A DNA stretch of 64,000 nt from Squalus acanthias (taxonomy: Eukaryota): contig CM059428.1 in the NCBI GenBank assembly GCA_030390025.1, positions 43,400,001 through 43,464,000 of the forward strand. The letters are read 5' to 3'. A program made the translations under genes and the position numbers. The notes beneath the pieces were generated by a model, which was given only the letters and a program-made list of their open reading frames with translations, did not search any database and had not been told where the DNA came from. The first letter of the stretch is position 1. Every line of letters begins with the position of its first letter. Positions 1,521-63,913 of the stretch are shown here, piece after piece.

Positions 1521-1557
1521 TCTGGCAAGGACAGCATTTATTGCCCATCCCTAACTG

Positions 1558-6035: not shown

Positions 6036-6090
6036 ATGGTGAGAAGTCTGCTCGCTGTTTTGGTGGCTGTTCAATTCAGTTTGGCTCGAG
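6036..6090 (+). CDS. cd276-like: B7/CD276-like gene A, signal-peptide exon (MVRSLLAVLVAVQFSLAR)
   Basis: tttgacAG acceptor (exon from 6017), ATG at 6036, hydrophobic leader, phase-1 donor G|GTAAGT. Homologous exons at 37478 and 60364. Confidence 0.85.
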
Positions 6091-6211
6091 GTAAGTCTTT
6101 AAATGTAACTGTTTCCTTGCACACATTAGAATGAACGATCCACACAGTTTGAGGTGGTCTTTTCACCACTGAGAAATGGCCCAAAGCAATAACAGTACTT
6201 TCACTTGTAAT

Positions 6212-6336
6212 AGCAAAATACTGCGGATGCTGCAAATCTGAAATAATAACAGAAAATGCTGGAAATACTCAGCAGGTCAGGCAGCATCTGTGGAGAGAAA
6301 AACAAGAGTTAACGTTTCAGGTCTGGGACGGAAGGG
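6212..6336 (-). mobile_element. Short Penelope-like terminal fragment with 13-bp TSD
   Basis: TSD tttcacttgtaat at 6199-6211 and 6337-6349. The empty site is seen in gene C at ~60527. Confidence 0.8.
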
Positions 6337-6445
6337 TTTCACTTGTAATGTTGGGTCAGTTTAATGGGCAAGATGGATAATTCCCAAGTAAACATTGTTC
6401 ATGGAGCTGAAAATAATATTTCAAAGAAATAGCCCCTGTCTATTT

Positions 6446-6686
6446 ACATAAGAACAGAAGAAATGGGAGCAGGAATAGGCCACTTGGCCCCTCGAGCCTC
6501 CTTCGCCATTCAATAAGATCATGGCTGATCTTGGGCTCAAAGCCACTTCCCTGCCCGCTCCCCATATCCCTTCACTCCCTTATCGTGTAAAAATCTGTCT
6601 ATCTCCACCTTAAATGTATTTAATGACCCAGCCTCCACGGCTCTCTGGAGCAGAGAATTCCACAGATTTACGACCCTCTGAAGAAA
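6446..6686 (-). mobile_element. CR1 3' tail truncated at the duplication breakpoint
   Basis: Near-identical to 37888-38128; encodes QRVVNLWNSL on the - strand. Confidence 0.88.
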
Positions 6687-7479
6687 CACGGTAGAAAAAG
6701 TTAGGGCTGGTGCATTCATGTGTAAGTGAATTTTTAATGGCATGATAAGTCCACGCTGAAAATTATCTCCAAGTACTGTAAGTTGCTGCTCAAAAGCCTG
6801 CACAAAGCCTGTGGGGCAGCTGTAAGCGTAATGATGGTCGAGCGCTGCTCCTTCACCACTGACTACAAAATCCGGGCCATTATTGCAAGTAACTCTTGCA
6901 ATTTCAATAACTTGTTAGTAACTTTTGCAACCTTCTGCACTTTAAAGGCTGGGTTCATCTGATAGGAGGAAAAAGTACTGCACAAGAACAAATACAAACC
7001 AGAATGCCCTGGTTTACCAGCGCGGTAAACATGTTTGTTTTGCAATGGTTAATGCTGGGAAGTTTGCTTGGTGCTGAGCATGAATTCAAGACCTGTATTA
7101 GTAATATAGCTGATAGTATTTTGCTGTCGAGGTCTGACAAATGTCTCCCATTGATGCTGTGCATTTTCCAAATTGCAAAAGTGAGGCATGATCTTTCTGC
7201 AAGATTACCCTGAAATTCCTGGGACAGGGAGAGGGCAGAAAGCCTGATTTTTCTACCCTTGGCCAGAAATTTGGGGCAGAACCTACACATTGGAATTCTG
7301 CCCTGTTTACACTGGCCAATTAAATTCTGCAAAGGCGGACGGATGTTCCACTCTAACACTTGCTTTGATGGAGTGGATACCGCAGGAATTTCTGGCCCAT
7401 GGGTATTTTTTTAATGTGATGGATTGAAATATATTATTTCTCTATGAAAAGAGTAGTTAATCCATCTGCAATTTTACAG

Positions 7480-7818
7480 ATCAACAACAAGTAAGTGTTT
7501 GGGAAGAAGCCGTACTCGCCATCCATGGTCAAAATACAGTCCTGCCGTGTCACTTCCTCGTTGGTGACTCCTTAGACCAGATCATCATCATCTGGCAACG
7601 TGTCGAGACCAAAGAGGTGATCTTCCGTTCCAACAGCAGCAAAGATCGGCAGAGTCGGCAGTATTCGGGGAGAGCGAGCCTTTTCCCAGAGGAGTTTAAA
7701 TTGGGAAATGCTTCCCTAAAATTAGAAGGAGTCAGACCAAAGGATGCTGGGCAGTACATGTGCTTTATCAGCACTCCAATAGAAAATAGTACAGGAATCA
7801 TGTCTCTAAATTTTGCTG
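7480..7818 (+). CDS. cd276-like: B7/CD276-like gene A, IgV exon
   Basis: AG|...G|GTATGT, 339 nt, phase 1-1. DQQQVSVWEEAVLAIHGQNTVLPCHF...IIIWQRVET...YSGRASLFPEEFKLGNASLKLEGVRPKDAGQYMCFIS...SLNFA, with canonical V-set C, W and DxGxYxC. Confidence 0.93.
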
Positions 7819-8853
7819 GTATGTTTTCATTTGCATCTTGACTTTTTTTTTTCTTCCAGTGTTGTAGATTAAAATGTTGTTTAATGTATGATTTCAGTAT
7901 AAGTCCTTTTCACGCAATTGAAATCAGTTGCTATTTTTGAGTGTTTGTTTTTATTAAATCAATAGTGTAGCGGAGCAACCTTAAACAAGGCGATGCCTTC
8001 GAGCCTGCTCTGCCCTTCAATAAGATCATGGCTGATCTTCTACTTCTACTCCACTTTCCCGCACTATCCCCATATCCTTTGATTTCCTTAGTATCCAAAA
8101 ATCTATTGATCTGTTGAATATACTCAACGACTGAGCATCCACGACTGAGTGTGTGTATATATAGATTTTTAGACAATAGTATTAAAAACACTGGAAACAA
8201 CCTCCAGGTTCCATCCAACAAGCTGACTCATTTAAGTACAGACACGTGGCACTTGTATGCTTACTATGATTGACGTATCATTGTAAGATAAGGCAGAAGC
8301 TAAATCTTGGGTTTTTTAAGTATTGAAAAGCCACTGGACACATGGACCTACTAATTCGATTAGCTGGAGTAGTTGCTATATTCTTACTATATACAGAGCT
8401 GGGAGTATCTGGTTTGATTTTAGCTAGTTTGTTCCCAGGTTACCTGACCTTAACCAGGGCAACACTTCATTTGGCCTCTGCCCATGAACTAGGAAGAGAA
8501 AACTCTGGTAGGGTTCCTGCTTTTGATTGCTAGCCATTGATCCCTGCTGGAAGCTACGTGAAGTAGCTGTCCTGAGAGGACAGGATTGGGCTCTGATGTA
8601 ATGGTCAATTTGCCTGCAAACATTCCATCTAAGATGACATGGGAAGAATGACCACTTGTGTGATGTACTGGAGGACTGCTGGTGTTTGTGGAACCATGCT
8701 CTGGCATGCGTTACTGCCTTTAGGAGAAAATTGTTGCTTTTCAATTTCCTCACCCCCCACCCCCCAAAATGGTAGCAGGAATTAAAACCTTAGATGGTAT
8801 TTGATGAATTTTATTTCCTTTGTCTATTGACTACTTTTTTAAAAATTCCTCAG

Positions 8854-9138
8854 CGTACTACACAGAACCCAGCCTAATAATCAAACGAACACCAGATGGA
8901 ACAGCTTTCGCCTTTGAATCCCAAGGTTTCCCCAAAGCTACTGTTTTCTGGTACAATGAAAAACACCAGGATATTTCTGCCCTGTCTGAGACCTTGTGCC
9001 AACTTCATGAAGATGGACTGTATTCACTGCGGAGTATTCTGCAAACCAATGATACCAGTAGAAGTTCAAACTACACATTTAGATTAAGGAATGATGTTCT
9101 GCAGCAGTCCTTTTCCTGGACATTTAGTCTTCCTTTGG
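8854..9138 (+). CDS. cd276-like: B7/CD276-like gene A, IgC (B7 C-set) exon
   Basis: cctcAG|...G|GTAAGT, 285 nt. AYYTEPSL...AFESQGFPKATVFW...GLYSLRSIL...NYTFRLRNDVLQQ resembles B7-H3 APYSKP...QGYPEAEVFW...YSCLVRNPVLQQ. Confidence 0.92.
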
Positions 9139-10288
9139 GTAAGTTAATTGATTTGGATCCTATGCAGTGAATCTTTTCCCCAAATAGGAGAAGGCCTAGA
9201 TATTAACTATCTGGCAGCTGACATGAGGGGGGTTGTGATCATGGGAAGCAGGGTGGAGAGGTAGTGACAGTGGCCCACATCATTCTTGTGGAGCCGGGAG
9301 AAGTGCTCCTTCACCTGGCCACACAAATAATTTACCTTTTTTGGGCTGCTTCTGTACCACCGAGTTTTACTGAGCAGACACTCTGCCAAGGTGGCAGTTC
9401 AAAATGTTTTTTATTCATTCATGGGATGTGGGCATCGCTGGCATTTATTGGCCATCCCTAATTGCCCTTGATGAGCCACCTTCTTGGCAATTGAGTGGCT
9501 TGCTAGGCCATTTCAGAGGGCAGTTAAGAGTCAACCACATTGCTGTGGGTCTGGAGTATAGGCCAAACCAGGTAAGGACGGCAGATATCCTTCCCTGAAG
9601 GACATTAGTGAACCAGATGGGTTTTTATGACAATCTGGTAGCTTCATTGTCACCAGTACTGATACTAGCTCTTTATTCCAGATTTATTTAATTAACTGAA
9701 TTTAAATTCCCCAGCTGCCGTGAGTGAGATTTGAACTCATGTCTCTGGATCATTAGTCCAGGCCTCTGGATTACTGGTCCAGTAACAACCACAATGCTAC
9801 CTTTCCTGCAGTAAACAGTCGGGTAAATTACTTAAAATGTATAAACAGATTTAAAAAGCCAGTGAGAATGTACTTCACAGGACCCCGATTTGCATAGGCT
9901 AATGAGGCGTGCACCTGATTCAGGTGGTTGCCTGGGGCACCCAGCAGAAGGCCCCAGCAAAATGCCAGTGGATTGAGAATGGGGCAGTGAGCACACCACC
10001 TCCATTTTAACTCTGCTCCAGAGCAGAGGGGGGCTAAATCCTCCCCGAAATGTGTTCCACTGCTAACCTCCCATTTGATGTACAAATTGAGTTCTAGCTT
10101 AGTGTCACAAAGTATATTTGATCCTTTTCAGCCACATCTGTAACTTCTAATTTAGTACCAGCTTATTCAATGTCACATTTTATGCATCATATAATTAGCA
10201 TTTTTGAAGTCAAATTGTTCATTTAAAATGTATTGTCAAAGAAATTCAAACTAGCACTGAAAGCATTGCTGTAACTTTTATTTTACAG

Positions 10289-10443
10289 AAATTCAAACTG
10301 ATTTTACAAGAAAGCGATGGATGCTGCTTGCTCCCCTGATAACAACTGGATTGATGATCATAATTCTAATTCTAGCATTGGTTTACAAGAAAAATGTCTT
10401 GGGTAGAAAGTACGATCCACCAAAACTATACTTCATGACCTGA
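10289..10443 (+). CDS. cd276-like: B7/CD276-like gene A, transmembrane and short cytoplasmic exon
   Basis: ttttacAG acceptor, phase 1: EIQTDFTRKRWMLLAPLITTGLMIIILILALVYKKNVLGRKYDPPKLYFMT*. The joined CDS is 834 nt (277 aa) if the exon reads to TGA 10441-10443; an internal donor is possible. Confidence 0.8.
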
Positions 10444-10444
10444 T

Positions 10445-10608
10445 GGTCCTGAAATCCCGATCAGAGGCTTCCCGCGAACAGAAGCCTCCGACCAGCAAAA
10501 GAGATGCGCACTTGCCTTCAGTCTCTGCGCGCACGGAGAGTTAGTGCTTTCATCCTGAGGACTCCTGGTCACCTCGTACGCACCCGTGGGCCTCGCAAAA
10601 TACGGGCC
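10445..10608. mobile_element. Possible short Harbinger-type MITE
   Basis: GGTCCTGAAAT...AAAATACGGGCC ends with flanking GAT/GAT; the TIR match is weak. Confidence 0.35.
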
Positions 10609-12167
10609 GATATGTCTTTCAACAAACTGTCCATGGGTGCATCGTACCTGTTTCAGCAGGGGGGGATATTCATTGCTGTGACTTAATGGTATAACAGCTC
10701 TTCACAGTGCTGGAGCAATTGAGCTGACGAAAAACACTTGGAAAGTTCAATTTGTGGGAGGGGGCGATCAGAGAATTGGGGCTACAGTGCAGTATCTCTC
10801 CTCCCCCAACTTCTGATCCCTTTCAGTGTGGCTTTCCTGCCCGGAGCACAGAATTTGGCATTTCTACAAGGCAAAAGGCATTTTGTTTTTTTGCCAATGC
10901 CACCTTAACAAATGTTGCTTCTTTCAGGATGCTTTTTAATGCTCTTTCTTTTCCCTTATGATAATTCACTCATACAGTATAGAATGGGGAAAATAAAAAT
11001 GCATTTCCAGAACAGGAGGGCAGGAAGGGGACCTGTTCCCAGGCACCTCGACCTATGCTGCTCTTGAATTGGTTTGAGAGTGTCTGTTTTATCACACCTC
11101 AGTATTTATCAGTTCTTCTGTTTGTTTTCACAACAGGTAAGCATTATTTTTTATATAAATTAATGAACTTGAAGAATTTAATAACTTTTTCTCCATATTT
11201 GCTCCATCTTGCAGTTGTCAGTGGTGGATCTATAAGCTTCTGAAGGGAGAAGAAATTAGTGAAGGTGCAAAATTTATTTTCTGTGGCAGGGTGACTCGCA
11301 TTTTTGTCACTTTTTTCACACCAGGGATTTTTCCAGCTCTCGTGTTATACAGAAATAATATATATTTATAAATGAGATTTAGCTATGTTGTTTTACATAG
11401 AGACCAGAAACAATTTTAAAAAGTAAGTGGAGACTCCTGATGTGTGGTTGGTACGTGGGATGCACTCTCCATTTATTTAGCTCATGGATAAAGCTTGAAT
11501 GAGAGCACAAGCAGTTGGTATGAATAATTGGAGATTCTGATTGTAAAATTATAGTTTGGGTAGAAAATTGAAATATCTGGAATTCTTCCAGACACAGCCT
11601 ACTACCTGTACTTCTGGATGTGATGCAATTTCCCTGTGAATTAAAAAATAAAGCCTGCAATGAGTTTGTCTTGGATCCGTGAATGAGTAGAAACACACAA
11701 ATCCACTACTGCAGTTGATAGCACCATAACACTCATACAAAGGATAATTCAAAGTCATTTCTACACTACCCCCCTTGTGATTCTTTTTGTGACTATCTAG
11801 GGAACAGTGATGTAGATGTAAATAGATTTTTAATAGTGAAATTTAAGCAGCGATTGTTCGTAAAACTTCTATTTTGAGACAAGTCTGGGGATGGAAAGAC
11901 TAAGATTGAAGATGTTGTACTTTTTAGTAGTAAGCATTCACACTATCGTTTATCCCCTCATTACTTCCACTTACCTGGATGAGTGCAGCTCCAACAACAC
12001 TCAAGAAGCGTGACACCCTCCAGGTCAGAGCAGCCCACTTGATTGGCACCCCATCCACCACCTTACACATTCACTCCACCACTGGCATACCGTGGCTGCA
12101 GTGTGTACCATCTACAAGATGCACTGCAGCAACTGGCCAAGGCTTCTTCAGCAGCACCTCCCAAACT

Positions 12168-13140
12168 CAATATATATTAATGATCTAGACGAGGGAACTA
12201 GATGTAATATCTCCAAGTTTGCAGACGACACAAAGCTGGGTGGGCGTGTGTGCTGTGAGGAGGATGTAGAGAAACTCCAGGATGATTTGGACAGGTTGGG
12301 TGATTGGGCAGATGCAGTATAATGTGGATAAATGCGAGGTTATCCACTTTTGGTGGTATAAACAGGAAGGCAGATTATTATCTGAACGGCAACAGATTGG
12401 GAAAAGGGGAAATGCAACAAGACCTGGGTGTCCTTGTGCACCAGTCGCTGAAGGTAAGCATGCAGGTGCAGCAGGCGGTTAAGAAGGCAAATGGTATGTT
12501 GGCCTTCATAGCGAGAGGATTCAAGTACAGGAGCAAGGATGTCTTGCTGCAGTTGTACAGGGCCTTGGTGAGACCACACCTTGAGTATTGTGTGCAGATT
12601 TGGTCGCCTTATCTGAGGAAGGATGTTCTTGCCATGGTGGGAGTGCAGCGAAGATTCACCAAACTGATACCTGGGATGGCAGGAATGACGTATGAAGAGA
12701 GGTTGGGTCGATTAGGCATATATTTGCTAGAGTTTAGAAGAATGAGAGGGGATCTCATTGAAACTTATAAAATTCTAACAGGACTAGACAGACTAGATGC
12801 AGGTAGGATGTTCCCGATGGCGGGGGAGTCCAGAACCAGGGGTCAAAGTCTAAGGATAAGGGGTAAGTCATTTCGGACTGCGATGAGGAGGAATTTCTTC
12901 ACCCAGAGAGTGGTGAACCTGTGGAATTCTCTACCACAGAAGGCAGTTGAGGTCAATTCATTAAATATATTCAAGAAGGAGTTAGATATATTTCTTAAGG
13001 CTAAGGGGATCAAGGGATATGGGGAGAAAGCAGGGACAGGGTACTGAATTTGGATGATCAGCCATGATCGCATTGAATGGTGGAGCAGGCTCGAGGGGCA
13101 GAATGGCCTACTCCTGCTCCTATCTTCTATGTTTCTATGA
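12168..13140 (+). mobile_element. CR1 LINE 3' fragment inserted in an older LINE fragment (11960-13470)
   Basis: [27 protein letters not shown], and a tctatgtttctatg tail. Near-identical to 24417-25397. Confidence 0.9.
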
Positions 13141-15390
13141 CCTCTTCCAACTCCTATCTTCTATGTTTCTATGACCTCTTCCAACTAGAAGGACAAGGGC
13201 AGCAGGCGCATGGGAACACCACCACCTCCAAGTTCCCCGCCAAGTCACACAGCATCCTGACTTGGAAATATATCGGCCGTTCCTGCATCGTCGCTGGGTC
13301 AAAACCCTGGAACTCCCTCCCTAACAGCACTGTGGGAGTACTTTCACCACACAGACTGCAGCGGTTCAAGCAGACGGCTCACCACCAGCTTCTCCAGGGC
13401 AATTAGGGATGGGCAATAAATGCTGGCCTTGCCCGTGATGCCCACATCTCATGAATGAATAAAAAACAAAATGCCAGTGATGCAGCTTGATTTCTCTCCC
13501 TCCATGTGGGGAAGTGTCTCGTGGTGGGTTTTAAACTCCAGATAACTAGTTAGAGTTGGAAAACACTGAAATTAATCTTGGTTTCAACGCAATGCCAGGA
13601 GAAGGAGGAGTTTGTATGCCAGCGAATTTGCAGTTAATGAGGAACAAGAGAGGTGAGTTCAAGGAAGTGCTGAGCAGAGCAGTATTGATAAAATAGAAGC
13701 GAGAAAGACTGCAGTAAAAAGAAAGGTTGGACACTATAGGTGAGAGGCAGTTACAATTTTGTTGGATGTGAGATAGTTAATTTGCATATTAATACCTTTG
13801 TCTACATGCATGTGTATATATAAAATCATAATTAGATTACAGGCCAAAGTAACTAACTTAGAAGAGGGTAGATGGGGAAAATAATGGCTAGCTTGACTGA
13901 AGAAGAAACATTCTATCACGATATACACATAGCTAAACAATAGTGTCTTGAAAGGGTAGTGTAGGATCACGAGGTTATAATGGTTTGAGAATTACAAGAC
14001 ACAGATGAATGTGGGGTTAGGGATCTGCTGAACCATAGAAATCAGACAGAGAAGGGGCCTACATGCAGAACCAAAGTTCTTGAAATAGCTTATCTGCTGT
14101 GGAAATTTATAAAAAGGAAGGACTGGGTCAGGTCAGGTGACATGAGAGACCCTATGGAGAGGGAAAGGAACATTGAGTGAAGGGTCCAAGGGAATGTCGT
14201 AGATTTGAATTGAAAGTCATGGTATAAGAAGGGGACCCCAGCAAAGGTTAAGGGTAGAAGATTTGAGTCAAATTTGGGGAGACACTTGGAGGTGGATACG
14301 GGCCTGGGCACAAGCCAGTGGGTGCAGACAACTCTTACTGTGACTTTTACCCAAGGCATAACTGGGTAGTATAACTATTCATTATACCTTGTAACAACAT
14401 GAGCAGAGCGCATTGAGTCCCAGCACTGCAAACTACATGAGGGGTATTTGTATGTCTTCAATGGGCCTTCTGCTTGTGAGCATTTAGACCTATATCACTT
14501 ACTTGTAGTCTAAGTGCCCGGCAAATATCAACAAACATCTGTCATTGTGTCACTGACTCATGGGTCCTTGAATCTGTTAAATACGGTTTATACAGCAACT
14601 CCCATTGTACCATCCAATTGTTTTAAGCGATTCTAGGAGATTTTACCTCCACTTTCTCTGGAAGTTTATTCCACATGTTGATCACAATGAAGATGAGTTT
14701 CCTGATACCTGTCCTAAAACTACCTTTTACTAGGCTGAACCTGTGTCCTCTAGATCTACTTCGGCAACTTAATTTAAAGTCACATTCTGGGTTAACTTTT
14801 TCTATACTTGTAGCAATATCTATATGCCTCTGAGATCATCTTTCAGCTGCCTCTTTCTAGGTGGGGAAAAAACCCAGGGGTAAAAATTCACTTGGTTGCG
14901 CCTCCCGTTAGCGCCTTAAGAGGGCGCTAATGGGGCGTTAAGCCGCTAACGCCCGGGCGCAGCGCTGTTTGCGCCGCTCGGGAACTTAACTTGAGATTCT
15001 GCGGCGGCGCTAAAACTTACCGCTGCGACCACCTGCGCGCGCAGATTGTGACGTCATTCCATGGTGCAACGCCCTTGGGGCGCCCCGGAGCAGAAATTGA
15101 GTGGCGCCCCCTGCCTTACCGCCTGGCGCTTCCAACGACCGGAAGACTGGAACGTTATCAATCGGTGTGGGGCTGGGGGGGGCGCTATTTAAAGGGGGCC
15201 TCTTCCTGTCTTTTTCTGTGGTCGACATTTATGCACCACTCGTTCTGAGAGAGAGAGAGAGAGATTCGGAGAGAGAGAGAGAGAGACTTCTACATTGACT
15301 CAACGCTTTGTGAGGTAGTTTTGCCTAGTTCATCCTAACTTTGTTGCTACTTTAGTTGCTGTACCTCATTACTTTTCTGGCAAAGAGAAT

Positions 15391-16551
15391 ATGGGGGCTG
15401 CAATGATTGGGGGCGTCGTCCTGCTCCAGCTGAATCGGAGGATAGTGAGACGCAGACAGAGAGTGGCAATGATGGCCAGACGGAGGAGGGCCATCAGGCG
15501 CATGTACAGGAGAGCTTACCCTCCCAGGGTATATCGTGAACAGCTCTCCTACATCCATATGTCCGAGGAGCTGTGTTTGCGAAGGCTGCGATTCAGCAAG
15601 GAGGTGGTCACTGAGCTCTGCCACCTGCTGCAGCCAGATCTGCAGCCTCAGCTGAGGTCCAGGACGTCTCTGTCGGTGGCAGTGAAGGTCACAGTGGCTT
15701 TGAACTTCTACGCCACTGGCTCATTCCAAGCTGCTGTTGGGGACCTCGCCAATATCTCCCAGTTTGCGGTGCATCGCTGCATCCGGCAGGTCACCAATGC
15801 CCTCTTCAGAAGGAGACGAGACTTCATCTCTTTCCCTATGACCCCAGACAAGCAGCGTGACCGTGCTCTGGGCTTTGCGAGGGTAGCGGGCTTCCCCATG
15901 GTGCAGGGCGCCATTGACTGCACGCATGTGGCTTTGCGTGCTCCGCGAGAGAATGCAGAGGAATTCAGGAACAGAAAGGGGTTCCATTCCTTGAATGTGC
16001 AGTTGGTCTGTGACCACAGACAGGTGATACTCGCTGTCAATGCCCACTATCCGGGCAGCTGCCACGATGCTTTCATCCTGCGCCAGACTACTGTGGCAGA
16101 AGTTTTCGAGGCACCGCATCAGCCAGTTGGTTGGCTTCTGGGGGACAAGGGGTACGCATTGAGCACCTGGCTGATGACACCGCTCCGTACGCCAAACACC
16201 CCTGCTGAGCTGCGGTACAATGAAAGCCATCAAGCAACCAGGAACATTATTGAGCGCACAATCGGCGTGCTGAAACAACGGTTCCGCTGTCTGGACCATT
16301 CCGGAGGAGCCCTGCAGTACTCGCCTGAGCAAGTTTCGAACTTCGTAGTCGTGTGCTGCATGTTGCACAACATGGCAATCCTCAGGACCCAGCCAATGCC
16401 ACCAGGCCTTGTAGCACCACCAGAGGAGGAGGAGGAAGAGGAGGAAGAGGACAAGGACGATGATCATCAGCAGCACCAAGGCAGGAGGGCGGCCCACAAT
16501 GGTCAAACTGCAAGGGCCGTCCGTCAACGACTAATAGCAAGCCGCTTCTAG
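15391..16551 (+). CDS. Harbinger transposase (HARBI1-like DDE_Tnp_4), intact, 386 aa
   Basis: GAIDCTHV, NRKGFHSLNVQLVCD, GSCHDAFIL, WLLGDKGY, RNIIERTIGVLKQRFRCL, CCMLHN; N-terminal HTH (ISQFAVHRCIRQV). Confidence 0.95.
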   Translation: MGAAMIGGVVLLQLNRRIVRRRQRVAMMARRRRAIRRMYRRAYPPRVYREQLSYIHMSEELCLRRLRFSKEVVTELCHLLQPDLQPQLRSRTSLSVAVKVTVALNFYATGSFQAAVGDLANISQFAVHRCIRQVTNALFRRRRDFISFPMTPDKQRDRALGFARVAGFPMVQGAIDCTHVALRAPRENAEEFRNRKGFHSLNVQLVCDHRQVILAVNAHYPGSCHDAFILRQTTVAEVFEAPHQPVGWLLGDKGYALSTWLMTPLRTPNTPAELRYNESHQATRNIIERTIGVLKQRFRCLDHSGGALQYSPEQVSNFVVVCCMLHNMAILRTQPMPPGLVAPPEEEEEEEEEDKDDDHQQHQGRRAAHNGQTARAVRQRLIASRF

Positions 16552-16845
16552 GGCCCCTGCCATTGCTACAAACACTAATCAACCCAGCACGCAACCCCTA
16601 AGCCGGCCAAGGCACCAATAATTCCAACCACCAGCCATGTATATTTTGAATACAGAAACTTATTTATTTTACAAACTCTGTGTGTGTCAATTCCTCATGA
16701 CAAACTCATAGAAATAAACACAAAAAAACAGTCAATAACATAACTGGTTCTCACAACCTGGAGATAATGTCCAAAACACTAAACAAAAGTTGGACCATGA
16801 ACCTCGGCCTTTAATAAAAAAATGACCAGCATTTTGGCACACCTC

Positions 16846-21000: not shown

Positions 21001-21164
21001 TCTATCTCGGCCCCCTTCCCTATGTCTGCCAGCAAGAGAATGTGCAGCAAAGGAAAGAGAAAGAGAGCGAGAAAGAGAGAGTGAGTGCAGGAGCAAGCAG
21101 CAGAAAGGTTGGTGATTGAAGGCAGTGTGAATGTGCAGAGCTGAGAGCAGCCTCTACTGGCAAG

Positions 21165-37477: not shown

Positions 37478-37532
37478 ATGGTGAGAAGTCTGCTCGCTGT
37501 TTTGGTGGCTGTTCAATTCAGTTTGGCTCGAG
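37478..37532 (+). CDS. cd276-like: B7/CD276-like gene B, signal-peptide exon
   Basis: Identical to the gene A leader; G|GTAAGT donor. Confidence 0.87.
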
Positions 37533-52537: not shown

Positions 52538-52831
52538 GGCCCCTGCCAGTGCTACAAACACGAATCAACCCAGCACGCAACCCCTAAGCCGGCCAAGGCA
52601 CCAATAATTCCAACCACCAGCCATGTATATTTTGAATACAGAAACTTATTTATTGTACAAACTCTGTGTGTGTCAATTCCTCATGACAAACTCATAGAAA
52701 TAAACACAAAAAAACAGTCAATAACATAACTGGTTCTCACAACCTGGAGATAATGTCCAAAACACTGAACAAAAGTTGGGCCATGAACCTCGGCCTTTAA
52801 TAAAAAAATGACCAGCATTTTGGCACACCTC

Positions 52832-54903
52832 CTACTTTTTGCCCTTCGAGGGTGATCTCCTTCCCTTGCGCACTTCCCCCCTTCTAACCCTACTGCTCCT
52901 CCGTAATGGGACCTCAGTGGCTGCAGCAAGGCTGGTGGAAGGCTGCTGCTTGTCAGACCCTGACACTGCAGATGCCCCTGAAGGACGGCCTCGACCACTT
53001 CTGGGCCTGGAGGGCCCGGCTGCAGACTGCACCAACTCTGCATGGGCGGCAGCAGTCTGTCCTACAGGCGGTGGCAAGTGCAGTGGATGAGTGACAGTGT
53101 TGGCAGCAGGAATGCTGTCATCGTGAGAGAGGACAGCAACTCCCTGCTCGCCCGACACACTGGCACTCCCACGGGGCAGCACTTCAGCATCCGGAGCAAT
53201 TTGCCGGAGAACAGATTGCTGGCCTGCTGCGGTGCGGTGACAGCCCCGGGGACATGTGCACGAACCATCGAGGATGGCAGCAGTCAGTGCTCGCGTGGCC
53301 TCAATCTGAGTCTGCATGAGAGCAGGCTCAGATGGGTTCCTGGCAGCCAGTGACTGAATTGCAGCAGTAAGCTTTAGTGTGGCATCCGCCTGTGCTACAG
53401 CGAAGTGCTCCACACTCCTTGCCAGTGCCTCAATGCATTCGGGCACCCTTCCCACTGCACCCATGAGCTCAGTGTGCATGACCACCGCCTGGCTGTTGAT
53501 TTCTGCAATCAGCCGCTCCTCCTCTGCGTCCATTGCATTAGGAGTGTCTGGCATACTCTCCCTCTGGGGAGAAGGCTCCCGTTCTTCCCTCCCCCCCCCA
53601 TGGCGTTGCTGCAGCCCGCTGGGTCCTGGAACTTCACCATCATCAGCCCCTTCCCCCCTGCTCCCCCGTTCTTCCCTCCCCCCGCCATGGCGTTGCTGCA
53701 GCCCGCTGGGTCCTGGAACTTCACCATCATCAGCCCCTTCCCCCCTGCTCCCCTCCGGGGAAGGCGTGTTCCCAGTGTGGGCATGGGCTTCCTCGGGAGA
53801 GGGTGGCACTGATGCTCCGGCTTCCTCTTCCTCCTCAGCTGCAGCATCACTCCCAGTGGCAGCTTCAGGGACCATCTCCTCAGCTGGTGAATCACCATCT
53901 GAAAGCAGGGAGGTACAAGAGTGGCTTTAGCGTGAGGACAGGGTGGCAGTAAGGGAGGAATAAGTGCAGCGAGTTAGCAAGTTGGATTGAAAGTGTCAAA
54001 GGCTGGTATTGTGAGGGACAAGTGGAAGGACAGCGGACAAAAAGGTGATGACCTTACCGTTGCTGTCCACAACGGGGTCGGCGTCTCCAGTGGCGACAGG
54101 ACCGATCACCCGGCTTGCCACAATCCTGTGGACGCGCTCCTCCAGATCGCTGAGGGGTTGCAGCTGAAGCCGCCCTCCACCCGTCCGTTGCTGCTGTCTC
54201 CGATTATGAGCCAGCTTAGCCTGCAAGAAAAAGGACAGCATCTGAGTCAATATACAGCCATGGTCTTGCCTGATGTGCCTCCCATAGGTGAATAGCCCTT
54301 ACAATATGCAGCCATGGTCTTGCCTGATGTGCCTCCCATAGGTGAATAGCCCTTACAATATACAGCCATGGTCTTGCCTGATGTGCCTCCCATAGGTGAA
54401 TAGCCCTTACAATATGCAGCCATGGTCTTGCCTGATGTGCCTCCCATAGGTGAATAGCCCTTACTGTATGCAGCCATGGTCTTGCCTGATGTGCCTCCCA
54501 TAGGTGAATAGCCCTTACTGTATGCAAAGTGTGGAATGTGTGTGTGTGTTTGATGAAAGGGCCATAGGTGTTGCATGAGTGTTGTGCATTGGGGTTTTAA
54601 GACCCTCTGGCCATAGAGTGAGGTTGAGATGGAGGGATGGAGAGGTATTGAGAAAAAGCCACTCACCCTGACGACCCGAGTGAGGTCGTTGAACTTTTTG
54701 CGGCACTGGACATGGGTCCTGGGCACCATGCTCCTGGAGGAGACGCTCTGAGCCACCTCCCTCCACACTCTTCTGAACTCGCGTGGCAAAGGCCTCCTGC
54801 CACTCTCCGGGAACAGCATGCATCGTCTGCGCTCCACTGCGTCAACCAGAGCATCCAAGGCCCGCTCGGTGAAGCGATGAGCGCGTTCTCTCACCCTCTC
54901 CAT
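52832..54903 (-). CDS. Harbinger Myb/SANT-like protein, copy B, exons 54903-54667, 54220-54058, 53898-52832; 488 aa
   Basis: Same splice sites as copy A; in-frame 87-bp duplication in exon 3. Confidence 0.86.
54255..54524. repeat. 54-bp minisatellite, 5 copies
   Basis: Same unit as at 18182. Confidence 0.97.
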
Positions 54904-55567
54904 GCTTGGCAGCAAAATGGATTACAGGTCTCTCCAGGCTGAGATTCAAGGCTGCAATGAGCAGGGTGTGGCTGGGGAGCAAGTGGCCCCCCCCGCTTTA
55001 AGAAGTGTCCGGCACCAGTGTGTCTGTGTTCCCTCGCTAACTGGCAGCAGCTGCGCTGCGCTCGTGCGCTGAGTTAGCGCCTCACTCCTAGGCCTTTGCG
55101 CCTTAAGAGAGGTGTGCAGCGCCTAATTTAGCGCTCCACTCACCTCCCGGGGCGGTAAAAGTGAAGTTTCCTGTCAGTGCCGATAATTAGCGCCAGGCGC
55201 TAATATTTGCGCGCGGACGATATTTGCGCCCCAAATGGGGCGCGACCTAATTTCTACCCCCCTGTCTCTTGGATTGGGGACAGGGTCAATGGCAGACCTG
55301 AGTGGTAGGTGGAAGTGCTGCCCACGTAACCTCCAGGCTTGTGTCTTTGTCGCTCCCCTCCTCCCCCTCCATCATCATTCAGTAGTCGCACTCTTTCCTA
55401 CAAAAAGATATAGTTTCATGCGCCACATCACAAATTGAGCACACTCTTCTGACATTTTAGTGCAGTGCTGACGAGGTGCCACTTCATCACTAGTGGGTTC
55501 ATTTACATGAGATATTAAACCGCAGCCTGTCTGTTGAAGGGGATTCAAAAGATCGCATTTTACTCAG

Positions 55568-58500
55568 AGTCATAGAGTCAGAGTTATACGCACAGAAAGA
55601 GGCCCTTCGGCCCATCATGTCCGCGCCGGCCATCAAGCCCTATCTATTCTAATCCCATTTTCCAGCACTCGGTCCGTAGCCTTGTATGCTATGGCATTTC
55701 AAGTGCTCATCTAAATGCTTCTTGAATGTTGAGGGTTCCTGCCTCTACCACCCTTTCAGGCAGTCAGTTCCAGATTCCAACCACCCTCTGGATGAAAAAG
55801 TTTTTCCTCAAATCCCCTCTAAACCTCCTGCCCCTTACCTTGAAACTATGCCCCCTGGTTATTGACCCTTCTACTAAGGGGAAAAGTTCCTTTCTATCTA
55901 CCCTATCTATGCCCCATATAATTTTGTACACCTCAATCAGGTCCACCTCAGCCTTCTCTGCTCTAAGGAAAACAACCCCAGCCTGTCCAGTCTCTTTTCA
56001 TAGCTGAAGCGTTCCAGCCCAGGTAACATCCTGGTGAATCTCTTCTGCACCCTCTCCAATGCAATCACATCCTTCCTATAGTGTGGCGACCAGAACTGCA
56101 CACAGTATTCCAGCTGTGGCCTAACTAGTGTTTTGTACAGCTCCATCATAACCTCCCTGCTCTTATGTTCTATGCCTCGGGTATCCCATATGCCTTTATA
56201 ACCACCTTATCTACCTGTCCTGCTGCCTTCAGGGATCTATGTACGTGCACACCAAGGTCACTCTGATCCTCTGTCCTTCCTAGGGTCCTACCATTCATTG
56301 TGTATTCCCTTGCCTTGTTAGTCCTCCCAAAATGCATCACCTCACACTTTTCAGGGTTAAATTCAATTTGCCACTGTTCTGCTCATCTGACCAACCCGTC
56401 TACATCGTCCTGCAGCCTGAGGCTTCCCTCCTCGCTATTTACCACTCCACCAATTTTCGTGTCATCTGCGAACTTACTGATCATACCTCCTACATTCATA
56501 TCTAAATCATTAATGTACACTACAAACAGCAAAGGACCCAGCACCGATCCCTGCGGTACACCACTGGACACAGGCTTCCAGTCACCAAAACAACCTTCGA
56601 CCATCACCCTCTGCCTCCTGCCACTAAGCCAATTTCGGATCCAATGTGCCAAATTGCCCTGGATCCCATGGGCTCTTACCTTCTTGACCAGTCTCCCATG
56701 CGGGACTTTGTCAAAAGCCTTACTGAAGTCCATGTAGACTACATCAACTGCACTACCCTCATCCACACACGTAGTCACCCCCCCGAAAAATTCAATTAAA
56801 TTGGTTAGACATGATCTCCCCCTGACAAAGCCATGCTGACTATCCTTGATTAATCCTTGCCTCTCCAAGTGGAGACTAATTCTGTCCCTCAGAATGTTTC
56901 CAATAATTTCCCTACCACTGATGTTAGGCTCACTGGCCTGTAATTTCCTGGTTTATCCCTACTACCCTTCTTGAATAATGGTACTACGTTAGCTGTCCTC
57001 CAGTCCTCTGGCACCTCCCCTGTGGCCAGAGAGGTTCTGAAAATTTGTGTCAGAGCCCCTGCAATCTCCTCCCTTGCCTCACACAGCAGCCTGGGATACA
57101 TCTTGTCTGGGCCTGGGGATTTATCCACTTTTAAGCCCGCTAAAACCGCTAGTACATCCTCCCTCTCAATACTAATTTGTTCAAGTATATCACAATCCCC
57201 CTGCCTGATTTCTATGCCTACATCGTCCTTCTCCATAGTGAACACAGATGCAAAATATTCATTTAAAACCTCACCCACATCTTCCGGCTCTACACACAGA
57301 TTGCCACTTTGGTCCCTAATGGGCCCTACTCTTTCCCTGGTTATCCTCTTGCCCTTAATATACTTATAAAACACTTTGGGACTTCCCTTTATTTTGCCCG
57401 CCAATGTTTTTTCATGCCCCCTCTTCGCTCTCCTAATTTCTTTTTTAAGTACCCACCTACACTTTCTATACTCCTCTAGGGCTTCCACTGTTTTTAGTCC
57501 TTTGTATCTGCCAAAAGCCTCCCATTTTTTCCTAATCCATTCTTGTATATCCCTTGACATCCAGGGTTCCCTGGGCTTGTTGGTCCCACCCTTGACCTTT
57601 ACGGGAATATGTTGACGTTGTACTCTCTCTATTTCCTTTCTGAAAGACTCCCACTGCTCTGATGTGGATTTTCCTACAAGTAGCTGATCCCAGTCCACTT
57701 TGGCCAGATCCTGCCTTATCATATTAAAATTGGCCTTCCCCCAATTTAGAACCTTTATTTCCGGTCCATCTTTGTCCTTTTCCATGACTATCTTAAATCT
57801 CACCGAATTATGATCACTCTCACCAAAATGCTCTCCGACTGACACTTCTACCACTTGCCCGGCTACATTCCCTAGAATTAGGTCCAGTACCGCCCCTCTG
57901 TTGTTGGACTTTCTACATGCTGGCTCAAAAAGCTCTCCTGGATGCACTTTAAGAATTCCGCACCCTCTAAGTCTTTCACACTCTGACTATCCCAGTTAAT
58001 ATTGAGGAAGTTGAAATCCCCTACTATTATTACCCTATTATTTCTACACTTCTGAGATTTGTCTGCATATCTGTTCCTCTATCTCCCCCTGACTGTTTGG
58101 GGGCCTGTAGTACACTCCCAGCAAAGTGCTTGTCCCCTTTTTGTTTTTAAGTTCTACCCATATGGCCTCATTAGAGGAACCTGCTAAGATATCATCCCTC
58201 CTTACAGCAGTAATTGACTCCTTGATTAATATTGCGACACCCCCTCCTCTTTTACACCCCCCTCTGTCTCGCCTGAAGATTCTATACCCTGGAATATTGA
58301 GTTGCCAGTCCTGCCCCTCCCTCAACCATGTCTCTGTGATAGCAACAATATCATACTCCCATGTGTTCATCAACACCTTCAATTCATCTGCCTTACTCGC
58401 AAGACTCCTTGCATTAAAATAAATGCCATACAGCCTTGCCATACTCCCTTGTGCTGTTACATATTTGCTCTGCCTTCCAGGCTGACTTGTTTTTTCCTCT

Positions 58501-59890
58501 ATATTTGGCTGTGCATCACCCCCTACTATAGCTCCACTCCGTATCCCATTCCCCCTGCCAAGTTAGTTTAACCACCCCCCCTTCCCCCCCACCCCCCACC
58601 CACCCCCCTGCCAACAGTGCTAGAAAACCTCCTCGCAAGGATGTTGGTCCTGTTCTGGTTCAGGTGCAACCCGTCCGACTTGTACAGGTCCCACCTTCCC
58701 CAGAAGCAGACTCAGTGATCCAGGAAACTAAAGCCCTCCCTCCTGCACCAACTCTTCAGCCACGCATTCATCTGCTCTATCCTCCTATTCCTATACACAC
58801 TAGCACGTGGCACCGGGAGTAATCCAGAGATTACAACCTTTGAGGTCCTGCTTTTTAATCTGCTACCTAGCTCCCTAAATTATTCTTGCAGGACCTCATC
58901 CCTCTTTCTACCTATGTCATTGGTACCAATGTGAACCACGACCTCTGACTGTTCACCCTCCCCCTTCAGAATGCCCTGCAGCCGTTCAGTGACATCCTTG
59001 ACCCTGGCACCAGGGAGGCAACATACCATCCTGGAGTCACGTCTGCAACCACAGAAACGTCTATCTGTTCCCCTTACGATAGAATCCCCTATCGCTATTG
59101 CTCTCCCACTCTTTTTCCTCCCCTCCTGTGCAGCTGAGCCACTCATAGTGCCACGGACTTGGCTCTTGCTGCATTCCCCTGGGAAACCATCTCCCCCAGC
59201 AGTATCCAAAACAAAAAATCTGTTGGTGAGGGAGATGGACCCAGGGGACTCCTGCACTACCTTCTTAGTTCTGTTACTCTGTCTGGTGGTCACCCATTCC
59301 CTGTCTGCCTGTGCACTCTTTACCTGCGGTGTGACCACCTCGTTAAACGTGCTATCCAGGAAGATCTCAGCTTCGCGGATGCTCCAGTGACTCCAGCCGC
59401 AGCTCCAGCTCCGAAACACGGATTTCGAGTAGCTGCAGCTGGAGACACTTCCTGCACATGTGTTCGCCCTGGACACCGGAAGTGTCCCTGACTCCCCACA
59501 TAGCACTGGAGGAGCACTCCACGCTGCTGAGCTGCCCTGCCATGTCCTACCCTTAATTTACTCCCTTTACTTCCTTTAAATTAAAGAATATTAAATACAC
59601 TAGGGACCTTGCTTCCCTTTAAACACTACTTATTCTAAACTAGAGATCTTACTTTTACTTCAATGACTGGACTGTAGAAATATTCACCGGGTCTACTTAC
59701 CAATCAGCTCCTTCCCTGGTTGTGACATCACTTAGTGGTTTCGCAGTTGTTGTTGTTTGACTGCTCCCCGTCTCGGACTCTTTCCCAACTCACAGCATTC
59801 CGGTGTCGGGCCTCCTCTGCAGCGCTCCTTTATGGCCGATCCGCCTTCTCTCAGGTCCCGCTGCCGCTCCCACACAGGTCCACCTCCTCC
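55568..59890 (-). mobile_element. Near full-length CR1 LINE (another subfamily), frameshifted
   Basis: ORFs 58880..59506 (ORF1 esterase), 58044..58442 (APE), 56889..57947, 56383..56868 (KFADDTK), 55937..56149. Confidence 0.93.
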
Positions 59891-60363
59891 GGTCTATTCG
59901 AAGAGCGGGGAAGTTTTCTACTTTCCTGGCAAAAGTTATTCATCAACCAAAACTGGTCATTTATCTGATTGCTCCTGTGTTGCCTATAACAGCAGTGACT
60001 ACACTTCAGAAGTAATTCATTGTTTGTGAAGTGCTTTGGTATTTTTCTAAGGATATGAAAAGTGCTGTGTAAATGCCGGTTTTTATTTATTTCCTTTCCA
60101 CATTTCAGACAGTCTCTGTTTTTAAAAACACAACCAGGACCAAATCAAATAGCTTGAGGTTTAGAGTTGAGATATTTGGTTGGAGATTCTGTTGTTGATG
60201 TGCAAAGAAATAACTGTCATTTATATAGCACCTCATGTCTTTAGGATGTCCCAAAGTGCCTTCTAGCCAATAGATGACTTTGGAGGTGGAGTCACTGTTG
60301 TGTTTGCAGCTGTGGAAACTGATCGTCTTTTCTTGTTTTGACAGCTGTCGAGGAGAGCAAAGT

Positions 60364-60418
60364 ATGGTGAGAAGTCTGCTCGCTGTTTTGGTGGCTGTTG
60401 AATTCAGTTTGGCTGTTG
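60364..60418 (+). CDS. cd276-like: B7/CD276-like gene C, signal-peptide exon (MVRSLLAVLVAVEFSLAV)
   Basis: Acceptor before 60345, ATG at 60364, phase-1 G|GTAAGT donor. Confidence 0.83.
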
Positions 60419-60893: not shown

Positions 60894-61139
60894 TCTCTCC
60901 TGCTTTCTATCCTATCACTGACCTTCCCTTTTGTTCTTTCATCCCCTCCCCCTTTTCCCAGCCCTAAACTTGCTTTAAAATCTATTTCATTTCCTGCTTT
61001 TTTCCAGTTCTGACGGAAGGTCTTCGACCTGAAACGTTAACTCTGTTTCTTTCTCCACGGATGCTGCCTGACCTGCTGAGTTTTTCCAGCGTTTTCTGTT
61101 GTTATTTCGGATTTCCAGCATCCGCAGTATTTTGCTATC
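60894..61139 (+). mobile_element. Penelope-like terminal fragment nested in CR1, 10-bp TSD
   Basis: TSD agatttacaa at 60884-60893 and 61140-61149. Confidence 0.85.
61006..61042 (+). ncRNA. Minimal hammerhead ribozyme (Penelope-type) with a 1-nt insertion in the core
   Basis: AGUU CUGACG(G)A AGGUC UUC GACCU GAAA CG UU AACU. Confidence 0.6.
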
Positions 61140-61793
61140 AGATTTACAAGGATGTTGCCGGGAGTAGAGAATCTTCGCCATGAGGAAAGACTCGATAGGC
61201 TGGGTCTGTTTTCCTTGGAACAGAGGAGGCTGAAGGGAGACCTTATTGAGGTGTATAAAATTATGAGGGGCACAGATAAAGTGGATAGAAAGGACATATT
61301 TCCCTTAGCAGAGGGGTCAAAAACCAGGGGGCACAGATTTAAAGTAATTGGTGGAAGGTTTAGAGGGGAAATTTCTTCACCCAGAGGGTTGTGGGGGTCT
61401 GGAACTCACTGCCTGAAAGGGTGGTAGAGGCAGGAACCCTAACCACGTTTAAAAAGTACTTGGATGTGCACTTGGGATGCTCTAACCTGCAGGGCTGGGA
61501 AGTAGGATTCGGCTGGATAGCTCTTTGTTGGCCGGCGCGGACACGATGGGCCGAAATGGCCTCCTTCCGTGCTGTAACTTTCTATGATTCTAAGATGGAT
61601 ACTTCCCAAGTAAACATTGTTCATGGAGCTGAAAAGAATATTTCAAAGAAATAGCCCCATCTATTTTGTGGTGTTTACTGATCATGTTGCTGCAGATGCT
61701 GCAGTTACTTTTTTTATGTCCATTTGGTGAGGTGAGGGAACCAAACTTCTTCTATTTCAATAGATCACAGGAAATATCAACGCAGGAAATATC

Positions 61794-62557
61794 GGGCCAG
61801 AAATTCGGCTCTCCGGCTTCCTAAGGGTGCAAGCATCGCGCGCGTACTTGCCTACCGCGCCTGCCGTTGTGCTTCGGGCCCACGAGGACTTCGGCTCCTG
61901 GGCCTCCTACAGCTGCCAGCGCGCAGTGCTTGCGTATCCCAGGGGCGCAGTTAGTTCGAAGCGTCCCCTGGGATCACGTGGGCCATGGAGAGCCAATCGG
62001 AGCAGGGCATTTTCATTCATAGATTTGACAGGAAGACCTGTCAAATCTATGAATAGAGATCGGCCCCAAAACCACACTTAAACTTCAAATAAATTTTTTT
62101 TAAAACATTGCATTTTTAAAATAACTATAGGTTACATAAATTAACTACTTCAAACAAAAATTAAAATTTTTGAAAAAATTAATTATACTTTTTAACGTGC
62201 TAAAAATAAACTTACCTTTCTTTAAAGTATGTAAAAAAGATAAACCTGTTGAAAAAATGTTTAAATTGTAATTAATTAACCACTTACCTTGTTAAAAACA
62301 GGCCTTGCACCTCCTTTTTAAAAGTGCAGCTTCTCCATGCTTACCCTCATGGAGAAACCTGAAAAAAAAAGCGAAGTTCGCTGCGTGTCCGCAGCCTCTA
62401 CCGCGCACGCGTTCGACTTCTGAACCCCTTCCTTCAGGGGAACAGAAGTTCCGGTTTCCCGCGCATGCGCAGTGCATGCAGGAAACCGGCACTTCAGGTG
62501 GCCTTACGGGTGAGTACACAGCGCGTACTCACCCGACAAGAGACGAATTTCTGGCCC
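61794..62557. mobile_element. Non-autonomous Harbinger-type MITE in gene C intron
   Basis: TIRs GGGCCAGAAATTCG / CGAATTTCTGGCCC; TSD ATC; absent at the homologous gene B site (~39600). Confidence 0.9.
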
Positions 62558-62681
62558 ATCAACTCTTCAGGGAAGAGAGAAAATGCAGAAGCGGGGATAA
62601 TTGCTTTTTAGTGCTTTCCTGTGTTCAAGATTAAATCTCTTGGAACAATGCTGTTACTAATCTATTTGTTTTAATTCACAG

Positions 62682-63035
62682 CTCAGTTTACTGTTCACAC
62701 CCCAGAAGCACCAGTGACTGCTGTCTACGGTCAGTACACGGTGCTGAGTTGCAGCTTTAAAGCTCAGGGTGAATCGTCACTGGATCTGCTGGTCATCAAT
62801 TGGCAACGTGTCGAGACGGAGGAAGTTGTTTATAGTTATTATTCTGGAAAAGAGCAACTCAGTCGCCAAAGCCCTCGGTATTCGGGGAGGACAAGCTTAT
62901 TCCCAGAGGAGTTAAAACAAGGGAACGTTTCAGTGAAGCTGGACAGAGTGAGACCAGAGGATGCTGGACAGTATGTGTGCTTTGTCAGTAACGGAAAAGG
63001 AATTGGCCAGGGCATTGTGTCTCTAATATTTGCAG
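62682..63035 (+). CDS. cd276-like: B7/CD276-like gene C, IgV exon
   Basis: 354 nt, phase 1-1; close paralogue of the gene B IgV exon. Confidence 0.9.
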
Positions 63036-63621
63036 GTACATGCTTCTTTCAGTTTTCATTTTTGTTCTGTCAGTGCTGCAAATTAAAGTCATGCTTCTTG
63101 GCCTCCCCTGATGGCTCAGTGAGTCTCACCATTGAGTGCCTGAGCCGTACAGACCAGGTTTGATGCCCAGACTGTGCTGGTGTAGCTCCTCTCCGCTGGA
63201 GCAGTGCTATTGGTGCAATCGACACACCTCGGTTAGGGTTGGCACTCCCATTTGCTATTCAGCAAGCCCTGCCTGTGGACGGCTCCAGGATCGGGCTGAA
63301 CTGTGATGGCCTCGCAGGTGAAAAGCCCACTGATATTTACCATCAAGGGTTATGTATGATTTTGGCTGAACAGCTGCCAGCAGGATATTGTGGGATTTTC
63401 ACCTTCAACTTGATCACTTGGTATAATGATTTGAATATCTCCAAATTGATCACAAACAGCAATATCTACTATTCTGTTTGTACTTTGATTTGTTGTTTTT
63501 GAAAATTAAAGCTTTTATTGCAATTTTCAATTAGTTATTAACTGGAACAAAATTCCTAGTTGGCATTATTTTTTATCAAGTTTATTTCTTGTTTCTAATG
63601 GCCCTTTTGTAAAATCTACAG

Positions 63622-63913
63622 CATACTACAAAGAACCTGACTTTTTTATCCAGTTAACACCATCCGGGACATTGTTCAGATTCGAGTCCCAAGGTTACCC
63701 TGAGGCTACTGTTTCCTGGTACAATGAAGAAAATGAGGATATTTCGACACTGTCTGAGACTACGTACTACGTACCAACAAAGTGGAGATGGTCTATACGC
63801 CCTGCAGAGTATTCTGCAAATCAATGACGCCAATAGGAGTTCGAACTACACATTCAGATTAAGAAATGATGTTCTACACCAATCAGTTTCTCGAACATTT
63901 GGTCTTTCTGTAG
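63622..63913 (+). pseudogene. cd276-like: B7/CD276-like gene C, IgC exon with frameshift
   Basis: 292 nt (285+7): TACGTAC is duplicated at 63761-63774, giving a premature TGA at 63825-63827. Splice sites are intact. Confidence 0.88.

Follow-up and report, generated by a model that had tools for sequence, protein, structure and literature searches.

Genes of a CD276-like B7 subfamily with a cysteine-free IgC domain in a 64-kb stretch of the Squalus acanthias genome

Three leader-IgV-IgC modules

Within a 64,000-nucleotide stretch of Squalus acanthias contig CM059428.1 (positions 43,400,001 to 43,464,000 of the forward strand; hereafter the window), three modules, here called A, B and C, each encode a leader, an immunoglobulin V-type (IgV) domain and an immunoglobulin C-type (IgC) domain of the kind found in B7-family ligands such as CD276 (B7-H3). 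All three lie on the + strand, with AG/GT exon ends and phase-1 introns. The leader coding part is 55 nt (phase 1) in each, and the lengths of the IgV and IgC exons are divisible by 3 except for the C IgC exon (292 nt). The exons are as follows.

6036-6090, + strand: A leader coding part, B-type; exon start probably at the acceptor before 6017
7480-7818, + strand: A IgV exon, V-set, 81% amino acid (aa) identity to Pristiophorus P0037
8854-9138, + strand: A IgC exon, with Phe in place of both canonical Cys and a single non-canonical Cys
10289-10402, + strand: A stalk and transmembrane (TM) exon, KD19 2.72
11215-11652, + strand: possible A last exon (low confidence), with short tail, stop and polyadenylation (polyA) signals at 11640 and 11647
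37478-37532, + strand: B leader coding part
39772-40122, + strand: B IgV exon, V-set
40686-40970, + strand: B IgC exon, without any cysteine
40971-41428, + strand: B open read-through past IgC, 152 codons, maximum KD19 1.09, polyA signal at 41540; transcript use putative
60364-60418, + strand: C leader coding part, not preceded by a CpG-rich stretch
62682-63035, + strand: C IgV exon, intact, V-set
63622-63913, + strand: C IgC exon, with a 7-nt tandem duplication at 63759-63772 and a premature stop at about 63825

The Pfam V-set domain was matched above cut-off in the V exons of A, B and C (E 9e-10 to 2e-12) and C2-set_3 in the IgC exons of A and B, and the encoding of the IgV and IgC ectodomain by separate phase-1 exons is a feature of the B7 family. 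The A TM exon was the sole candidate both in a scan for hydrophobic exons and in a tblastn search with homologue tails; the last exon proposed for A is one among several acceptor candidates. As to the single TM segment and short cytoplasmic tail, A has the TM, none was found for B, and the 3´ end of C lies beyond the window. The frameshift in C is known from a single assembly.

At the nucleotide level, B and C are 95% (V) and 96% (IgC) identical, and A and B 65% (V) and 76% (IgC). Between A and B, the IgC exons differ by 0.19 nonsynonymous (dN) and 0.78 synonymous (dS) substitutions per site, and dS between B and C is 0.07-0.08. The B IgV exon carries a 3-nt in-frame deletion within an otherwise conserved YSYYYG stretch, and this motif is absent altogether from the A IgV; both changes affect what is likely a receptor-facing region.

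The first-pass annotation, made from the DNA letters alone, had described three same-orientation, phase-1 leader-IgV-IgC modules, with B and C close to each other, and these exon coordinates, splice ends, Pfam matches and identities bear both statements out. Its view of A as diverged from B and C holds for the V and C exons but not for the leader, which is 100% identical to that of B, or for the block 1-6686. It had also proposed membrane, possibly soluble and disabled members. A with its TM, B with no TM exon found and the frameshifted C agree with this, although B and C are possibly one gene.

An IgC domain without its canonical disulfide

In the IgC domains of all three copies, Phe stands at both canonical cysteine sites (F-E-S-Q-G and Y-T-F-R-L), a feature not mentioned in the first-pass annotation. 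A search with the B IgC exon recovered 11 proteins among 90 candidates, all of them shark or ray proteins named 'CD276 antigen-like', and a profile of 15 such proteins gave 175 matches, of which 120 were listed. We could align 115 of 122 rows, the remaining 7 having no V plus C match. The family set (73 rows) consists of a 62-row clade of a quick tree and 11 near-redundant or partial rows assigned by hand. Neither IgC cysteine was present in any of the 72 family rows covering both sites, and both IgV cysteines were kept in 73 of 73. At the IgC B-strand site the family has Phe (44 rows), Leu (18), Tyr (10) or Met (1), and at the F-strand site Phe (54), Val (12), Leu (4) or Ala (2). Among the 42 other B7-like rows, 31 of the 40 covering the sites have both IgC cysteines. 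Judged from this alignment, the family IgC domain has lost the disulfide between strands B and F, Phe being the usual residue at the two positions.

The closest full-length homologue, P0001 from the sawshark Pristiophorus, was used as a stand-in for structure comparisons. Its best sequence match in PDB is CD276 (E 3e-27 to a 2Ig construct), which is also its best fold match (TM-score 0.79 by target), and both comparisons place it nearest to B7/BTN proteins. The predicted P0001 IgC is a seven-strand sandwich with a high predicted local distance difference test (pLDDT) score (10-residue block means mostly 86-95). Modelled alone, the B IgC exon (pLDDT 71) took on a predicted B7/BTN-type IgC fold. 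Its best match, at Z 11.6, was bovine butyrophilin (4hh8), with a root-mean-square deviation of 2.3 Å over 91 residues, and B7-H3 (9lme) followed at Z 11.3; the values for butyrophilin, B7-H3 and ICOSL IgC domains (Z 11.2-11.6) are level with those for many other Ig C domains. In such a fold, the two Phe would occupy the position of the disulfide.

Other IgC cysteines vary among these proteins. The non-canonical Cys of the A IgC (ETLCQL) is common to the Mustelus, Rhincodon and Chiloscyllium orthologues and absent from the sawshark one, and would possibly form an intermolecular disulfide. A further subfamily (P0011, P0027, P0029-P0032) has two other conserved IgC cysteines, one in the C strand (W-Y-C) and one just before the F strand, which could make a replacement disulfide. 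The F-strand cysteine is also missing from some rows outside the main clade, namely P0062, P0099, P0108 (coelacanth), P0098 (zebra shark), P0112, P0115 (turtles) and P0105; with these rows, a single loss and repeated losses would both be compatible.

Named family members among the matches listed come from sharks, rays, Callorhinchus, lungfish, sturgeon and bowfin, as well as eels, an osteoglossomorph, clupeids, otophysans and salmonids. No acanthomorph or tetrapod appeared among the named family rows in these non-exhaustive searches. Cysteine-free IgC proteins were also seen in bichir and tarpon, neither of which was placed in a tree. Family homologues have a TM and a short tail, the TM being carried by B-type homologues of other sharks and rays as well, and Pfam scans of P0001 and P0011 detected no B30.2/SPRY domain in these two homologues.

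Our conclusions on relationships rest on a careful tree of 39 rows, with which the quick tree (86 of the 115 rows, 29 redundant or partial rows having been dropped by hand) agrees. The cysteine-free family forms one clade of 28 rows (support 100/99, stem 0.74), and the canonical CD276 proteins of a stingray and a teleost form a separate one (100/99). The elasmobranch members fall into four subfamilies. A groups with its Pristiophorus, Mustelus and Rhincodon orthologues (100/100), joined in the quick tree by Chiloscyllium, whereas B and C are sisters (98/90) within a shark-and-ray subfamily (100/98). The approximately unbiased (AU) test rejected a clade of A, B and C (p-AU 4e-6), and also one uniting the chondrichthyan rows with stingray CD276 (p-AU 4e-59, for a row set chosen post hoc from the tree). 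Stingray CD276 (P0114) has both IgC cysteines, and B is 37% (V) and 23% (C) identical to it. Two marks of a CD276 orthologue are lacking: the window genes do not group with vertebrate CD276 and do not have the canonical IgC B-F cysteines. Only B and C are mutually closest, as copies of a lineage-specific family would be.

Family matches sharing one contig number at least four in Mustelus and in S. canicula, at least three each in Heptranchias, Rhincodon and Pristis, and at least two in Callorhinchus, and several subfamilies are co-located on one contig in other species (tabulated by hand). By the tree, the A and B/C subfamilies diverged before the split of galeomorph and squalomorph sharks. 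Together with the matches per contig in other chondrichthyans, the tree argues that the cluster is old and that only B/C is young. The recent duplicates and disabled copies in the window are the B/C pair, a 6.7-kb block at 99.3% identity and the frameshifted C (in one assembly).

Several statements of the first-pass annotation can be set against these results. A probable shark genome is borne out, the nearest tree neighbours of the window copies being sawshark proteins, as is the assignment to B7-family ligands most similar to B7-H3, given the CD276 match of P0001. A lineage-specific family does not survive, as A has orthologues in other sharks and the A+B+C clade is rejected, and neither does an expansion of B7-H3, CD276 forming its own clade and its union with the chondrichthyan rows being rejected. 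Of an expanding cluster, one recent duplication (B/C) remains, A not being recent. On this phylogeny, the genes belong to an old B7 subfamily that is CD276-like but distinct, and common to sharks and several bony-fish groups.

Probable local rearrangements of B, C and A

The B and C modules lack complementary parts. No TM exon for B was detected in 40971-60300 by tblastn with 22 homologues, and two TM candidates from the hydrophobic scan, at 59203 and 59269, were rejected, both being antisense of a LINE-like open reading frame (long interspersed element). The antisense translation of the B read-through has no open frame. The 300 bp upstream of the C leader have a GC content of 0.39 and a CpG observed/expected (o/e) ratio of 0.26, compared with about 1.0 before A and B, and the CpG stretch of B has no counterpart near C. 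These gaps (B without a TM exon, C without the CpG stretch) fit one partial tandem duplication of leader-V-C. In this first event, a B-type gene would have been partially duplicated to give promoter-leader-V-C (B) followed by leader-V-C (C), with the TM exon shared by B and C probably beyond the window.

The B leader, IgV and IgC followed by the C IgV form an open frame that ends in phase 1, the first IgC splicing in frame to the second IgV, so a transcript that skips the C leader and the broken C IgC could reach a downstream TM. The second IgC of such a 4Ig-like protein is not intact, the 7-nt duplication giving a stop at aa 417 of the joined frame. Annotated forms from sawshark (P0023), ray (P0035) and bamboo shark (P0113) skip the IgC exon and join IgV to TM, and thus offer a precedent in gene models for skipping the broken IgC of C. 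Two predicted proteins, P0062 (coelacanth, 503 aa) and P0144 (tarpon, 642 aa), have two tandem cysteine-free V-C units, which may reflect genuine 4Ig forms or the fusion of gene models.

Given this layout, B and C may together form a single, partly duplicated gene that shares the TM of C, in the manner of 4Ig-B7-H3. The competing explanation, which keeps a considerable though lesser chance of being right, is that they are separate genes, B being truncated or secreted, with read-through as far as the polyA signal at 41540, and C being a pseudogene. C retains its own leader exon and acceptor, the 152-codon read-through of B is open, lacks a TM and has a polyA signal nearby, and about 19 kb separate B from C, all as expected of two genes. 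A single partial duplication, however, explains the complementary missing parts at once, and the homologous B-type genes of other sharks and rays do have a TM. We therefore favour the single B-C unit, only slightly, over separate genes.

None of the sequencing runs listed for 39700-41100 is on record as RNA. Four runs guessed to be RNA contain 0.22-0.26 of the words of this interval, compared with 0.46-0.49 for the best DNA runs; a share of this size would suit exon-only cover (exons make up 45% of the interval) but counts as no evidence. For A, no splice joint was seen among the 15 joints shown (with 4432 more), and in two guessed-RNA runs the bin with the start of the A V exon was uncovered; the output is repeat-dominated, and both results are uninformative.

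The 5´ part of A is closely related to that of B, as the following features show.

1-6686, + strand: copy of the B upstream region, leader and early intron 1, 99.3% identical to 31454-38128; extends past the window start
5736-6035, + strand: CpG-rich, promoter-like stretch before the A leader, a copy of that of B; GC 0.54, CpG o/e 1.05; putative function
6686-6687, no strand: junction of the B-derived block and the A body, within a 3´ piece of a reverse CR1 (6447-6686), whose continuation in B extends to about 39485
31454-38128, + strand: source block with the upstream region, the CpG stretch (37178-37477), the B leader and the start of intron 1

The two blocks share 6640 identities, with 33 mismatches and 15 gap bases, and span the CpG-rich stretch, the leader and 600 bases at the start of intron 1. 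Identity to B ends abruptly at 6686 after 101 identical bases, where the cut CR1 meets sequence matching a different repeat within about 15 bases; no diverged shared repeat spans the junction. Intron 1 of B runs collinear with that of C and not with that of A. Compared with shark leaders, the A leader scored 47-51 for the best three of six B-type leaders and 22-34 for the others, versus 12-17 for four A-type leaders, and no native A-type leader was found in 6687-7479, where scores (18-25) stayed within those of shuffles.

As assembled, A is a chimera, with a B-type upstream region and leader on an old A-type body. The simplest single event behind it would be a head-to-tail duplication of 6687-38128 (31,442 bp) whose ends lie within the first introns of A and B. 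This second event would have put the B promoter and signal peptide onto the A body, such that the A protein would be expressed under B control. If a tandem duplication of about 31.4 kb did occur, a native A gene should lie upstream of the window.

Alternatively, 1-6686 could be an assembly artefact (a haplotype or false duplication) and A an ordinary gene, its true 5´ end displaced by other sequence during assembly. The 0.5% substitution difference is within what two haplotypes could show, the region is repeat-dense, and the junction is unbridged among the contigs listed. Read mapping over 5000-24500 covered 4 of 20 listed runs, with all their contigs, and gave mostly repeats as output; none of the 32 pieces listed crosses 6686/6687, the runs being 2-3% divergent and swamped by repeats. 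The sharp end of identity without a diverged shared repeat is easier to reconcile with a real non-homologous break than with an overlap misjoin, and two DNA runs, from two studies, contain the A body itself (contigs 2-3% divergent). We consequently regard an artefact as unlikely.

A non-coding piece downstream of A (13550-13747) is 81% identical to one downstream of B (42581-42784), with low depth in DNA runs, and could be either an old repeat or a homologous 3´ flank. Much of the remaining window consists of LINE-like, SINE-like (short interspersed element) and transposon-like repeats, and we recognised no unrelated host gene in it. Two Harbinger-type transposons (14867-19140 and 50855-55267), about 97% identical, each combine a DDE_Tnp_4 transposase with an opposite-strand Myb-like gene. 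The first retains an open 410-aa transposase frame (15319-16551), and the second is interrupted by an in-frame stop at about 52216. The two inserted independently, each with its own flanks and 3-bp duplication, at sites that resemble the CWG target of zebrafish Harbinger3; because their flanks differ, they were rejected as inherited markers of a duplication.

Interpretation and comparison with known systems

We consider it probable that the window holds part of an elasmobranch cluster of an old, disulfide-free B7 subfamily, on which two recent local duplications are superimposed. From their exons and domain content, A and the homologues are type I surface proteins with a leader, IgV, IgC, TM and short tail. 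B7 proteins are displayed at the cell surface and bind receptors via the IgV domain, with the IgC domain as a spacer. Here, the cysteine-intact IgV would most likely bind an immunoglobulin-type receptor on lymphocytes, as in other B7 ligands, and the IgC would be a spacer stabilised by an aromatic core rather than by a disulfide.

Several points weigh against this interpretation. The locus is known here from DNA sequence and predicted structures, the junction in A and the frameshift in C come from one assembly, and the predicted upstream A copy and the C TM exon lie outside the window. Foldseek places butyrophilins right behind B7-H3. The grouping of A with B/C and Callorhinchus P0056 is supported at 93/96 only, and the family is placed only tentatively, as 'sister-like', relative to CD276. 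The C leader exon, if spliced into a B-C transcript, breaks the frame (stop at aa 239). Finally, the B-C dN/dS ratios of 0.6 (V) and 0.33 (IgC) come from few sites and do not demonstrate that B is functional.

A different role, as butyrophilin-like or adhesion proteins rather than ligands of the CD28 family (in paralogue heterodimers, or in gamma-delta T-cell or epithelial functions), seems doubtful. The best Pfam match of the IgC is C2-set_3 (BTN3A2-like), bovine butyrophilin is the top structural match of the B IgC, tied with B7-H3, and several old paralogues have been retained side by side. Against this, the two scanned homologues have no B30.2/SPRY domain, homologues have short tails, and sequence identity is higher to B7-H3 (32%) than to BTN (about 20%). 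That the three arose as independent genes when B7-H3 itself expanded in this one species is very improbable: sequence and fold both match CD276 best, B is sister to C, and C is frameshifted, but the AU test rejects both implied clades, A has orthologues in other sharks, and stingray has a separate, cysteine-bearing CD276 to which B has little identity (37% and 23%).

The locus type is already known, as the genes are in RefSeq under the automatic name 'CD276 antigen-like', with some members named plainly 'CD276 antigen', and these names do not separate the family from CD276. We found no paper that separates it or notes the missing disulfide, though Hansen 2009 and Flajnik 2012 could already name it. 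The available parts of PMC12151841, PMC12227049 and PMC6795676 yielded no mention of CD276, and the available supplement of PMC3964593 yielded no match to CD276, B7H3, B7-H3 or 'B7 family', tables set as pictures being beyond such a search. The medaka Teratorn element is reported, in the part of the source available, to carry a 'CD276 antigen-like' gene (PMC5601938).

A consequence is that expression studies in fish and sharks may mix true B7-H3 with a different family, which the missing IgC cysteines distinguish at a glance. An Ig constant domain kept disulfide-free in chondrichthyans and bony fish is also a natural test of an aromatic-core Ig fold. The family is, in addition, a candidate ligand set for four CD28-family receptors absent from humans, for which the accessible text of PMC11599192 names no ligand. 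According to that text, CD28HL1 occurs in chondrichthyans, sterlet, bichir, gar, pike, trout and catfish, as well as amphibians, turtles and birds, and CD28HL2, which tetrapods lack, in sharks, bichir, paddlefish, gar, eel and lungfish; neither is reported from mammals (PMC11599192). These ranges, as far as the source gives them, overlap that of the family without matching it exactly, and a ligand link would be speculative. The boldest version of our interpretation, improbable when taken whole, would be an undescribed B7 subfamily of jawed-vertebrate age, lost in mammals, with a disulfide-free IgC and four clustered elasmobranch subfamilies, that supplies the missing ligands of orphan CD28H-like receptors, in a cluster under rewiring here through a promoter/leader swap onto A and an independent 4Ig-like duplication. 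The local rearrangements would be ordinary mechanisms at an early stage and are of lesser importance.

Among known systems, butyrophilins (BTN1A1, 4hh8; BTN2A1/3A1) share the IgV-IgC fold and clustered paralogues, but differ in the B30.2 domain, absent from the scanned homologues, and in sequence, with about 20% identity. The BTN IgC retains its disulfide. Mammalian 4Ig-B7-H3 arose, according to the portion of PMC3172298 available, by tandem duplication of V-C exons. On that account, B and C are alike in being tandem, near-identical V-C pairs with compatible phase-1 exons and one presumed TM downstream, and unlike in the inclusion of a leader exon in their duplicated unit, in the frameshift of the second IgC and in a joined transcript that is putative. 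B7-H3/CD276 (human 9lme and 9ly6; stingray P0114) has the same IgV-IgC-TM layout and the GYP and N..LxQ motifs, but it keeps both IgC cysteines, has a longer A-B loop and falls in a separate clade, whereas the window holds a multi-copy cluster.

Closest of all are the chondrichthyan proteins listed in RefSeq/UniRef as 'CD276 antigen-like', which the tree places in the same subfamilies: Pristiophorus P0001, Heterodontus XP_067867851.1 and Heptranchias XP_067862765.1 for the B/C type, and Pristiophorus P0037, Mustelus P0067 and Rhincodon P0068 for the A type. The window copies depart from these in the B-type leader of A, in the frameshift of C and in B, for which no TM exon was found. Identity is 79% (V) and 85% (C) between B and P0001, and 81% (V) and 82% (C) between A and P0037, with a cysteine-free IgC, as regards the canonical sites, in both members of each pair.

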